A stretch of 64,000 bases of DNA from an uncultured Candidatus Saccharibacteria bacterium. Lineage in GTDB: Bacteria > Patescibacteriota > Minisyncoccia > Phycocordibacterales > CAYGLL01. The stretch covers positions 38,090-102,089 of the forward strand of contig CAYGLL010000001.1 in NCBI GenBank assembly GCA_964350935.1, given 5' to 3'. The notes beneath the pieces were generated by a model. That model was not told the origin of the DNA. It searched no databases and saw only the letters and a program-made list of their open reading frames with translations. A program made the translations under genes and the position numbers. Shown in pieces: positions 27,997 through 29,415 of the stretch (position 1 is its first letter; each line of letters begins with the position of its first letter).

Positions 27997-28027
27997 AAAA
28001 TACCCACTATTGACAGGGTATTTTTTG
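27997..28027 (+). terminator. Rho-independent terminator with a -35-like TTGACA in its loop
   Basis: AAAATACCC-ACTATTGACA-GGGTATTTT followed by TTTTTTG. The loop carries cACTATTGACAggg, which doubles as a candidate -35 for the SQD1-like gene. Confidence 0.7.
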
Positions 28028-28127
28028 TATGTAATCTAACGTCTATGTCTGAAACACTATCACTACGGTAGGGGTTTCAGTTGGTACAGCTCTTTACAAT
28101 AACAACCAACAACAAAGGAACAATAGA

Positions 28128-29345
28128 ATGAAGATTATGATCCTGGGCGGCCTCGGTTATTTGGGCCATCCCACCGCACTGCATTTCTCTAATCGCGGCC
28201 ATGAAGTCACGATTGTCGATAACGACATCAAACGTCATTGGGAGTCTCAGGTAGGAGCCCAGCCCCTGTTTCCGATTCCGTTTCCGCTTCAGCGGCTTGA
28301 GCGTTGGAGGCAGGTGCGGCCGAACGCTGCTCCAATCAAGTTTTTCGCCTCGGACATCGCGAAGCATTACTCGAACATGGACGACATCATGCGGCAGGTT
28401 ATGCCGGATGTGATCATTCACTACGCTGAGCAGCCCTCAGCGCCGTTCTCGATGATCTCGCCGTCCCGCGCCGCGGAGACATTCACCAACAACTGCGTGG
28501 GGACTCTTTTTCTTCTCCATGCAATGAAAAATCATTGTCCCAATGCTCACCTGGTGAAGCTGGGGACGATGGGTGAGTACGGTACCCCGAACATTCCGAT
28601 CGAAGAAGGCTGGATCGAGATCGAGCACAAAGGCAAGAAGGATCGGCTACCGTTCCCGAAAATGCCCGGCTCGTTCTATCACGCCAGCAAGGTTGCTGAC
28701 TCGACCTTTATCGAGTTCACCTGCCGTGCGTGGGGAATCCGTGCAACTGACCTCAATCAGGGTGTCGTCTACGGAGTCTCAACTGAGGAAACTGACCTCC
28801 ATCAGGAACTCACTACCTCGTTCCACTACGATTCCTGTTTCGGGACGGTTCTGAACCGGTTTATCGTTCAGGCAGTCATCGGTCATCCGCTTACCGTTTA
28901 CGGTGACGGCGGACAGACTCGCGGCTTCCTGAACATCAGGGACACCATTCAGTGCGTTGAGATTGCAGTCAATAATCCTGCTGGTATCGGTGAGTTCCGA
29001 GTCCTGAACCAGTTCACTGAGATTTTTTCGGTGAAACAGTTGGCTGAAATGGTTGCCCGTGTCGGCGAGAAAGAACTTGGATCGTCAGTTAAAATCAAGT
29101 CGATCCCGAATCCTCGTGTTGAGAAGGAGGCGCATCTTTACGATGCGGCGAACAGCGCTTTCTTTGCTCTCGGGCTCAATCCAGTCTTACTCACCGATGA
29201 GGTGATCGCGTCCATGATCTCTCGCGTTGAGAAGGCTCGCACGAACATTCAGGCTTCGGTCATTCTGCCGCAGACGAAGTGGCGGCAGAAGCGCGAGCTT
29301 CGGCCTGCGACCGCTATGGTCACCGGCGGCGGTGATACAATCTGA
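28128..29345 (+). CDS. UDP-sulfoquinovose synthase (SQD1/SqdB/Agl3 family)
   Basis: [21 protein letters not shown]...[19 protein letters not shown]...[10 protein letters not shown]...[15 protein letters not shown]...[27 protein letters not shown] matches the conserved SQD1/SqdB signature blocks I recognise. The gene is monocistronic, bracketed by terminators at 27997 and 29369, and GC-richer than its neighbours. Confidence 0.7.
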   Translation: [405 protein letters not shown]

Positions 29346-29368
29346 GACCTTTGTTGGTGGTTGGTGCA

Positions 29369-29399
29369 ACCGCCCTTGCGAAAGCAGGGGCGGTTTTTT
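29369..29399 (+). terminator. Rho-independent terminator
   Basis: CCGCCCTTGC-GAAA-GCAGGGGCGG (one G-U pair) followed by TTTTTT. Confidence 0.8.
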
Positions 29400-29415
29400 C
29401 TTGCGAACGTGTCTA

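Follow-up and report, generated by a model that had tools for sequence, protein, structure and literature searches.

A UDP-sulfoquinovose synthase family gene embedded in nonulosonic-acid cassettes of Patescibacteria and Alphaproteobacteria

The gene studied here, sqdB, lies at 28128..29345 on the plus strand of a 64,000-nt stretch of DNA (the window: positions 38,090 to 102,089 of contig CAYGLL010000001.1, assembly GCA_964350935.1) from an uncultured Candidatus Saccharibacteria bacterium. As judged from its sequence, sqdB is an intact, fast-evolving member of the UDP-sulfoquinovose synthase family and a component of a nonulosonic-acid gene cassette found in Patescibacteria and Alphaproteobacteria. 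Sequence and modeled structure together suggest that the enzyme probably supplies a C6-sulfonated UDP-sugar to the pathway building the nonulosonic-acid-containing surface glycan of the surrounding 45-kb locus. Known sulfoquinovose synthases serve photosynthetic sulfolipids or, in one case, an archaeal N-glycan. An earlier reading of the same DNA (the original prediction) had proposed a stand-alone, horizontally acquired UDP-sulfoquinovose synthase in a bacterium resembling the Candidate Phyla Radiation (CPR).

In a phmmer search against the Protein Data Bank, residues 2-387 of the sqdB product matched Arabidopsis SQD1 (1qrr; 1i24 likewise) with E=7.6e-130, far ahead of the second family (5e-12). 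Pfam reported only a generic Epimerase domain, and the only strong NCBIfam match was the UDP-sulfoquinovose synthase model NF041015 at 433.1 bits (cutoff 575). This score of 433 is the lowest among ten proteins tested, compared with 484.7 for Arabidopsis SQD1 and 451-499 for eight other homologues; because SQD1 itself scores below the 575-bit cutoff, that value is too narrow as a membership test. An AlphaFold2 (AF2) model of the protein had a predicted local distance difference test score (pLDDT) of 88.4 and a predicted template-modeling score (pTM) of 0.88. Foldseek with this model returned 1QRR at the top, with template-modeling (TM) scores of 0.92/0.95 and a root-mean-square deviation of 1.4 Å, the family-specific insertions included, while non-SQD1 folds of the GalE/RmlB type reached 0.62-0.69 at best. 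Sequence and predicted fold thus identify the sqdB product as a full-length member of the SQD1/SqdB/Agl3 family and not a generic GalE. The original prediction had made the same family call, on which phmmer, NF041015, the fold and the active-site fingerprint described below agree.

Two other identities were considered and rejected. The GalE model TIGR01179 gave 45.3 bits against a cutoff of 262.3 and covered only the N-terminal Rossmann part, and the protein carries the T-Y-K triad, His183 and the TMG fingerprint; generic GalE proteins, named beforehand as the outcome that would speak against the family call, were therefore not the best matches. An NDP-hexose 4,6-dehydratase (RmlB, LegB or PseB) was dismissed since the motif is T-M-G, not [ST]DE or [ST]DK, and the scores fall far below the cutoffs (49.3 bits vs 365.1 for the dTDP-glucose dehydratase model TIGR01181, 28.4 bits vs 475 for LegB, and a similarly negligible PseB score).

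The sqdB ORF (open reading frame) begins with ATG, is intact and full length, and encodes 405 aa, as had been described; all four motif blocks quoted at the time were found in the translation. A ribosome-binding site, AAGGA, was read from the sequence at 28115-28119, 8 nt 5' of the ATG. A 402-aa database version (P0001) is 100% identical to the product, but the 405-aa start is preferred because the N-terminus MKIMILGG lines up with MKILILGG of the homologues.

Residues were compared in an alignment of 205 homologues and are numbered as in SQD1 unless window numbering is stated. The sqdB product keeps T145, M146, G147, E148, Y149, S180, Y182, H183, K186 and Q209 (G-T147-M148-G149-E-Y-G and S-F-Y184-H185-A-S-K188 in window numbering), including all three members of the Thr-Tyr-Lys triad (T145, Y182, K186) to which the original prediction had pointed. 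A [ST]MG...Yx3K fingerprint separates UDP-sulfoquinovose synthases from NDP-sugar dehydratases, and dedicated dehydratases carry [ST]DE or [ST]DK in place of [ST]MG (PMC8987622). His183 is an SQD1 residue according to Mulichak 1999 as cited in PMC4388408. The sqdB product also keeps most of the functionally important residues of Sulfolobus acidocaldarius Agl3 (PMC4388408); the essential Met145, Tyr182, Lys186, Glu147 and Tyr148 are shared, as judged from the published residues.

Thirteen alignment columns, with at least 80% conservation on each side, divide the proteins with Arg101 from the clade of the window protein. The main changes from the former to the latter are R36K, D40E, S47P, F97Y, R101P, R229S and D231H. 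The resulting sub-clade signature, K36, E40, P47, Y97, P101, S229 and H231, is complete in the window protein (K35, E39, P46, Y99, P103, S231 and H233 in window numbering), and no sub-clade member departs from the TMG motif or from His183. Across the 205 homologues, position 101 is Pro in 156 and Arg in 47. A rough neighbor-joining (NJ) tree placed all Arg101 proteins in one clade with SQD1; the window protein fell within a large Pro101 clade together with all 119 top database matches. These matches come from CPR phyla, Gaiellaceae, Alphaproteobacteria and metagenome contigs, are mostly annotated just as 'NAD-dependent epimerase/dehydratase family protein', and reach at most 62% identity in a search of 5.8 billion proteins. 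The sub-clade, with its fixed signature and its tie to nonulosonic-acid cassettes, is new here.

Genomic context was compared across 122 loci in total, comprising a species-representative genome scan, nine annotated contexts and 33 generic neuC metagenome loci; context calls were made with tblastn probes, neighbors were counted within 10 kb and glycosyltransferase (GT) identities were taken from Pfam. Homologues of neuC, neuB and neuA accompany sqdB in all 16 informative loci with the full signature (the window and 15 others), among them Saccharibacteria (three), Sungbacteria, Uhrbacteria, Vogelbacteria, Parcubacteria, Thalassospira, a Rhodospirillales metagenome-assembled genome (MAG), Pseudolabrys and four further contigs. 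Apart from these, the signature was found only in L005, which stops 2 nt past the matched region with its downstream side unseen and was not counted. The reverse holds for the R101/R229/D231 proteins of sqdB-sqdX type operons (Brachybacterium, Solirubrobacterales and Streptosporangiaceae, among loci L008-L079). These are 50-54% identical to the window protein and often have a GalE-like short-chain dehydrogenase (SDR) gene after sqdB, but a GT4 (Glycos_transf_1/Glyco_transf_4, SqdX-like) or GT2 gene adjoins sqdB in 46/47 loci, without neu genes.

Gene order within the cassettes is neuC-sqdB-neuA-neuB in L086, neuC-2-hydroxyacid dehydrogenase-neuA-sqdB-neuB in L084 and L085, neuB-neuC-neuA-sqdB in L006 (Thalassospira), sqdB-x-neuB-neuC-neuA in L121, sqdB-neuA-dehydrogenase-neuB in L122 and neuC-sqdB-SDR-x-neuA-neuB in L120. 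Given this variation, and an overlap of 4 nt between sqdB and neuB in L084 (overlapping stop and start codons also occur in L085 and L120), the sqdB-neu linkage has been kept through rearrangements. The order neuC-sqdB-GalE-like SDR is common to the window, L120, L001 and L002. Since this order is shared and all 15 other informative loci likewise have the gene within a neuC/neuA/neuB cassette, the window's sqdB is a regular cassette component, and the description of it as stand-alone does not hold. The association is one-sided, with a sqdB homologue in 1/33 generic neuC loci; in a metagenome scan with the window NeuC, relatives reached at most 47% identity. When NeuBs were compared by NJ, the copy closest to sqdB in each linked locus belonged to one clade, apart from generic NeuBs and including the window's cassette NeuB; in an NJ tree of NeuCs, most sqdB-linked copies, the window's among them, group together.

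Further partners of sqdB were seen in these comparisons. A D-2-hydroxyacid dehydrogenase gene (2-Hacid_dh) sits inside the cassettes of L082 (11983-12945), L084 (6250-7206), L085 (6310-7209) and L122 (8893-9855) and is absent from the window. A GalE-like SDR gene lies directly 3' of sqdB in many Arg101-clade and deltaproteobacterial Pro101-clade loci (L048, L052, L057, L062, L065, L069, L071, L074, L076 and L079, at about +1220 from the sqdB start), and also follows sqdB in L021, L070 and L077; sqdB plus a GalE-like gene is thus a widespread two-gene module. A sqdB-galE operon has been reported in Haloquadratum (PMC1544339). A further Pro101 clade, with P101/R229/D231, occurs in Chloroflexota/Anaerolineae loci (L019, L024, L025, L029 and L032), where neither neu genes nor a glycosyltransferase gene adjoins sqdB; conserved genes for a histidine-kinase-like protein of 530 aa and an ornithine-cyclodeaminase-like protein of 330 aa, identified by eye, lie upstream.

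A possible source of sulfite is encoded beside sqdB in part of the sub-clade. Five CPR loci (L001, L002, L003, L081 and L083) carry a PAPS_reduct gene (Pfam, 5.5e-42) immediately 5' of sqdB, and its products, of 225-232 aa, have a C-terminal ECGLH and CC...CxxC cysteines and are 68-96% identical to one another. In L081, a TauE-family gene lies one gene downstream. Directly upstream of PAPS_reduct and sqdB, L001 (8959-9309) and L002 (8952-9302) encode a 116-aa cysteine-dioxygenase-like (CDO-like) cupin (CDO_I, 5.6e-14), which could provide a second route to sulfite. No PAPS_reduct gene adjoins sqdB in L004, L082, L084-L086 or L120-L122. Such neighbors in relatives argue strongly, if circumstantially, for continued use of sulfite by the sub-clade.

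SQD1/SqdB/Agl3 enzymes are extended short-chain dehydrogenases with tightly bound NAD+. Their catalytic cycle starts with oxidation of a UDP-hexose at C4; loss of water across C5-C6 and addition of sulfite at C6 follow, and C4 is then reduced again. For the window enzyme, we infer sulfite as the co-substrate, UDP-Glc or UDP-GlcNAc as the UDP-sugar, and either processing by NeuC and NeuB or direct transfer as the subsequent step. In one of these fates, UDP-sulfoquinovose could be made from UDP-Glc and transferred unchanged, which is favored by the known specificity of the family, by the GalE-like partner shared with the R101 clade, and by GT4 genes a few kb off in several loci. That a sulfonated sugar would enter a surface glycan, as the original prediction had suggested, is the best reading, and its support is the nonulosonic-acid context of the locus.

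Several observations weigh against this assignment. Arg101, whose replacement by Ala inactivates Agl3 (PMC4388408), is Pro103 in the window protein. The window copy is also an outlier, with a mean identity of 58.9% to 119 clade members (clade mean 65.7±2.1) and 51.8% to SQD1 (clade 56.4±1.8). It has changes at six sites that are at least 93% conserved in 204 others (D10L, W15H, N126F, D155P, R168K and L342F), and its AF2 model is poorly defined at residues 152-154, beside the E148/Y149 loop. The sulfite-supply genes that the original prediction had looked to were absent, with no PAPS_reduct, TauE or CDO homologue, intact or degraded, anywhere in the 64-kb window (tblastn E>0.1). Finally, co-location speaks for pathway linkage and not for chemistry, and the NJ trees are rough and built on sampled loci. 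As for position 101, Pro is found in 126/126 members of the window protein's sub-clade, which makes it a clade trait and not a private lesion. That a large natural clade does without an Arg essential in Agl3 poses a concrete structure-function question.

In a bolder version that we regard as possible but not probable, the product would be a sulfonated nonulosonic acid. A first, dehydratase-like step would convert UDP-GlcNAc and sulfite to UDP-6-sulfo-6-deoxy-GlcNAc, which the co-evolving NeuC would hydrolyze and epimerize; NeuB would then condense the sugar with phosphoenolpyruvate, and NeuA would activate it to a CMP-9-deoxy-9-sulfo nonulosonic acid. The gene arrangement is consistent with this route: sqdB lies among neuC, neuA and neuB themselves and not beside transferases, its stop or start codon overlaps those of neighbors in L084, L085 and L120, and the minimal cassettes of L086 and L006 lack any further dehydratase or aminotransferase. 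An SqdX-like GT4 is a conserved neighbor in the R101 clade but not in this sub-clade. The original prediction had envisaged a partner sulfoquinovosyltransferase, but no SqdX/SQD2-type GT4 adjoins the window's sqdB; none lies within 13 kb, and the nearest GT4 in the window is at 14120-15205. Moreover, a NeuB clade and largely a NeuC clade are specific to sqdB-linked loci, and the cassette NeuB of the window reaches neither the NeuB nor the PseI cutoff.

The sub-clade substitutions may point the same way, with Pro and Ser in place of the bulky, charged R101 and R229. The counterpart of position 101 is K84 in E. coli GalE and G102 in WbpP, one of six residues that classify UDP-hexose 4-epimerases by preference for acetylated or non-acetylated substrates. 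This argument is only a lead, as the WbpP G102K mutant behaves contrary to a simple size rule; E. coli GalE Lys84 also binds the NAD pyrophosphate. We know of no 9-sulfo nonulosonic acid, which counts against the route, and known family members use UDP-Glc. The GalE-like SDR follows sqdB in the R-type loci and in this sub-clade alike, a hint that the two contexts yield similar products, and with GT4 genes a few kb off in L006, L084, L121 and the window, sulfoquinovose may be transferred directly. In favor of the route, one nonulosonic-acid pathway, Pen/Pal of B. thuringiensis, is already known to include a 5,6-ene intermediate (PMC8987622). On balance, we propose only tentatively that the Pro101/Ser229/His231 SqdB is the committed first enzyme of an undescribed C-sulfonated nonulosonic acid pathway in CPR bacteria and some Alphaproteobacteria.

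A separate question concerns how the gene came to its present place, and here base composition provides part of the evidence. The GC content of sqdB is 0.544, compared with 0.466 for the window, and the excess is in third codon positions. Third-position GC (GC3) is 0.653, against a mean of 0.482 (sd 0.056) for the other genes in the window (z ~3), and ranks first of about 50-58 ORFs, while GC1 (0.571) and GC2 (0.406) are both within 1 sd. The GC-rich block is sharply bounded by AT-rich flanks (GC 0.385 and 0.375). The GC-richer codon composition noted at first sight was thus borne out by windowed GC and by comparison with the flanking genes, and a GC content equal to the locus average, which had been entertained as a counter-finding, did not appear. 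The synonymous-codon distance of sqdB from the window genes is unremarkable (z 0.9); a per-codon chi-square distance was dominated by gene length and was dropped as evidence.

These features could be explained by a recent, independent insertion of a self-contained unit from a GC-richer donor into the glycan locus, a scenario we consider possible but somewhat doubtful. In addition to the GC3 value and the sharp edges, hairpins lie on both sides of sqdB. Two unrelated ORFs (29494-31162), with a promoter and terminators of their own, separate it from the GalE-like SDR that normally comes next, which shows that the spot has been rearranged and is recombinationally active. The gene or cassette does move, since a Saccharibacteria MAG (L001, 9312-11164) and a Sungbacteria MAG (L002, 9314-11164), from different CPR phyla, share 97% identical SqdB proteins; with APS-reductase-like proteins 96% identical as well, this pair reflects either a very recent transfer between phyla or mis-binning. 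On the other hand, neuC-sqdB-(SDR)-neuA-neuB is a conserved cassette position, and the unremarkable synonymous-codon distance does not favor a foreign origin. In 10/10 other loci tested, too, sqdB is GC3-richer than the mean of its neighbors (z 0.4 to 5.4; rank 1 in L082 and L086, rank 2 in L004), and the bias is therefore in part intrinsic to the gene. With a best match of 62% identity and the longest branch of its clade, the window copy has no nameable donor. The horizontal acquisition suggested by the original prediction was therefore not demonstrated. Replacement of an older copy in place, or a gene-intrinsic codon bias, is at least as likely as recent insertion, and in-place replacement is plausibly the most that the evidence for transfer allows.

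Three other ORFs of the window are GC-rich: 47978-49009 (+) with GC3 0.605, 59673-60482 (-) with GC3 0.637 and 60479-62131 (-) with GC3 0.544. Pfam found no family for the first two and a Band_7 domain in the third. Foreign DNA with no connection to the glycan locus is a possible explanation for these ORFs.

Returning to function, it is unlikely that the enzyme is a sulfite-independent 5,6- or 4,6-dehydratase leading to a 9-deoxy nonulosonic acid. Such a role would resemble that of the UDP/GDP-GlcNAc dehydratases at the head of the pseudaminic and legionaminic acid pathways (Pen/Pal and PseB/LegB); these are extended SDRs in nonulosonic-acid clusters that share the oxidation and elimination steps, with Pen proceeding through a 5,6-ene (PMC8987622). 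Agl3 and SQD1 themselves release UDP-Glc-5,6-ene without sulfite (PMC4388408; PMC8987622), the window holds no sulfite-supply gene, Arg101 and Arg229 are lost, and sqdB fills the place where nonulosonic-acid pathways usually hold a dehydratase. Yet dedicated dehydratases have [ST]DK or [ST]DE and add no sulfite, whereas the sulfo-sugar-synthase-specific TMG and His183 are invariant in the sub-clade. The APS/PAPS-reductase-like genes directly upstream in 5 CPR loci, and the TauE and CDO-like genes in others, likewise argue for sulfite use. Rather improbable, too, is relaxed constraint on a copy that is decaying or drifting in function. The long branch, the six changes at near-invariant sites, the low NF041015 score (433 vs 451-499) and the lack of an adjacent sulfite gene would fit decay, but the frame is intact and full length with its ribosome-binding site and terminator, every catalytic and signature residue is kept, and the model is confident. 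A classical head-group synthase for the sulfolipid SQDG (sulfoquinovosyl diacylglycerol), as in phototrophs and Rhodobacter, shares the family and the catalytic residues but is very improbable here, given the neuCAB cassette, the missing SqdX/SQD2-like GT4 neighbor (an arrangement of the R101 clade) and a Patescibacterium as host, a group that generally lacks de novo lipid synthesis.

The probable supply of a C6-sulfonated UDP-sugar to a nonulosonic-acid glycan would set the window enzyme apart from the characterized systems. Arabidopsis SQD1 (1QRR, 1I24) is 52% identical over 382 columns and has the same fold, insertions, GxxGxxG motif and catalytic residues; the window protein differs in Arg101 to Pro, Arg229 to Ser, Asp231 to His, Arg36 to Lys and Asp40 to Glu, in an 18-aa C-terminal tail, and in having a neuCAB cassette as partner rather than a sulfolipid glycosyltransferase. 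Agl3 is closer in role, as a sulfo-sugar synthase serving a surface glycan (an N-glycan) and not a lipid, but it is archaeal, is not linked to nonulosonic-acid genes, and depends on the Arg that is Pro throughout the sub-clade (PMC4388408). Our literature search found no publication that joins sulfoquinovose with nonulosonic acids. Publications naming sulfoquinovose and Patescibacteria were unrelated to a sqdB/nonulosonic-acid cassette, sulfoquinovose synthase and legionaminic acid were co-mentioned just separately, and a 2026 nucleotide-sugar survey treats sulfonic acids solely as a mass filter. For sqdB with neuB, only the Haloquadratum genome paper was found, which discusses them in different sections (PMC1544339). 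Within the literature searched, the SqdB/nonulosonic-acid cassette has not been described before.

The cell-surface chemistry of CPR bacteria is almost unknown and probably mediates host attachment. The sub-branch described here predicts C-sulfonated sugars on the surfaces of these ultra-small episymbionts, and points either to glycan building blocks in a new combination or to a new sugar class, sulfonated nonulosonic acids. If the latter were true, the product would be a permanently anionic surface sugar resistant to sialidases and sulfatases. A cultured carrier exists in Thalassospira sp. MCCC 1A01148 (L006), which makes the prediction directly testable.

The features around sqdB are listed in Table 1. 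The window contains a single large glycan locus from ~1.6 kb to 47.8 kb. Besides the genes tabulated, it encodes GT2, asparagine-synthase-like, SDR, C-methyltransferase, aminotransferase, GT4, flippase and methyltransferase proteins, RmlB, a NUDIX protein, an EamA transporter and a Wzy_C/TPR protein. The NeuC-, NeuB- and NeuA-like neighbors reported earlier are all present, as one neuC, two NeuB-like genes and two CMP-transferase genes. The neuC gene ends 148 nt upstream of sqdB, with neuA at +4.2 kb and neuB at +6.3 kb. The CPR-like host was likewise confirmed: the best named relatives of the GyrA protein are 72-74% identical and all from Patescibacteria (Pacebacteria, Taylorbacteria, Nomurabacteria and Parcubacteria). 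Two closer GyrA relatives, P0123 and P0124, are 88% and 79% identical.

Table 1 Features of the window discussed in the text, with the evidence for each.
Feature	Position	Strand	Evidence
Three paralogous TagF-like (Glyphos_transf) proteins, ~450 aa	19418-20824, 20848-22242, 25364-26722		
Second NeuB-like gene (NeuB-cupin fusion)	22975-24519		59-62% identical to counterparts in L001, L002, L004 and L083
neuC-like hydrolyzing UDP-GlcNAc 2-epimerase	26736..27980	+	Pfam Epimerase_2 4.4e-73; TIGR03568 NeuC_NnaA 353.5 bits, above cutoff 235.9; ATG read from sequence
Hairpin after neuC stop; probable bidirectional-type terminator	27987..28034	.	Perfect 19-bp repeat, 10-nt loop; arms 27987-28005 / 28016-28034
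TTGACA hexamer; sole (weak) sqdB promoter candidate	28009..28014	+	Inside upstream hairpin loop
sqdB	28128..29345	+	See text
Intrinsic terminator	29368..29395	+	12-bp GC-rich stem, 4-nt loop, T6 tail; terminator scan
Sigma-70-like site, strong	29416-29444		11/12; 3' of sqdB, serves next ORF
Multi-pass membrane protein, 219 aa	29494-30153	+	GC3 0.577
Terminator of ORF 29494-30153	30158-30188		
Secreted protein, 271 aa	30347-31162	+	N-terminal signal peptide; Reprolysin_5 weak, E 0.0013
GalE-like extended SDR	31213..32130	+	Pfam Epimerase 2.6e-63; NCBIfam galE 169.8 bits, below 262.3
Sugar-1-phosphate nucleotidylyltransferase	32133..32822	+	Pfam NTP_transferase 2.2e-21; NCBIfam Arch_glmU-type N-terminal domain 4.4e-40, below cutoff
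neuA-like CMP-ulosonic acid synthetase	33584..34297	+	Pfam CTP_transf_3 1.4e-22
neuB-like nonulosonic acid synthase	35637..36668	+	Pfam NeuB 8.7e-56 plus SAF; NeuB_NnaB 253 bits, PseI 185 bits, both below cutoffs
Second ulosonic module	40688-44212		GFO/IDH/MocA, CTP_transf_3, His_Phos_1, APH-type kinase
Second CMP-transferase	41779-42495		CTP_transf_3
Hairpin between convergent genes	50374-50417		
GyrA	52793-55255		

The original prediction had placed sqdB between two strong terminators with a promoter of its own, and only the first part was upheld. The upstream hairpin folds at -24.2 kcal/mol (z -6.9, with 0/200 shuffles as stable) and shares its A-tract/T-tract style with the hairpin between the convergent genes; the stem of the downstream terminator folds at -25.2 kcal/mol (z -3.4). 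The best -10 element for the TTGACA hexamer is TAATCT, at 16-nt spacing and with a 3/6 match; this candidate failed the promoter scan, which reported no promoter 5' of sqdB. Rfam found no riboswitch or other RNA family in the whole window or in the 147-nt leader of sqdB, and the window has no tRNAs.

Downstream, the GalE-like SDR is 53/50/50% identical to the gene directly 3' of sqdB in L120/L001/L002, and the NeuA-like protein is 62% identical to that encoded two positions 3' of sqdB in L001 and L002. The nucleotidylyltransferase is a possible supplier of NDP-sugars. The components of the second ulosonic module are 38% to 64% identical to their counterparts where these exist, with the highest values in L083; together with the NeuB-cupin fusion, the module suggests that the locus encodes another, different ulosonic-acid pathway. 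TagF-like genes similar to those of the window also occur in the sqdB-linked CPR loci L081, L082 and L086, and their products are candidate transferases or polymerases for CMP- or UDP-activated products.

Pfam returned nothing for the ORFs 29494-30153, 11586-12230, 47978-49009 and 36700-37158(-). The first of these, the membrane protein gene, forms a small transcription unit between the sigma-70-like site and its own terminator. The secreted protein encoded next is an odd passenger in a glycan locus: its motif QEVGHLFGLDH is a metzincin-like HExxHxxGxxH with the first His replaced by Gln.

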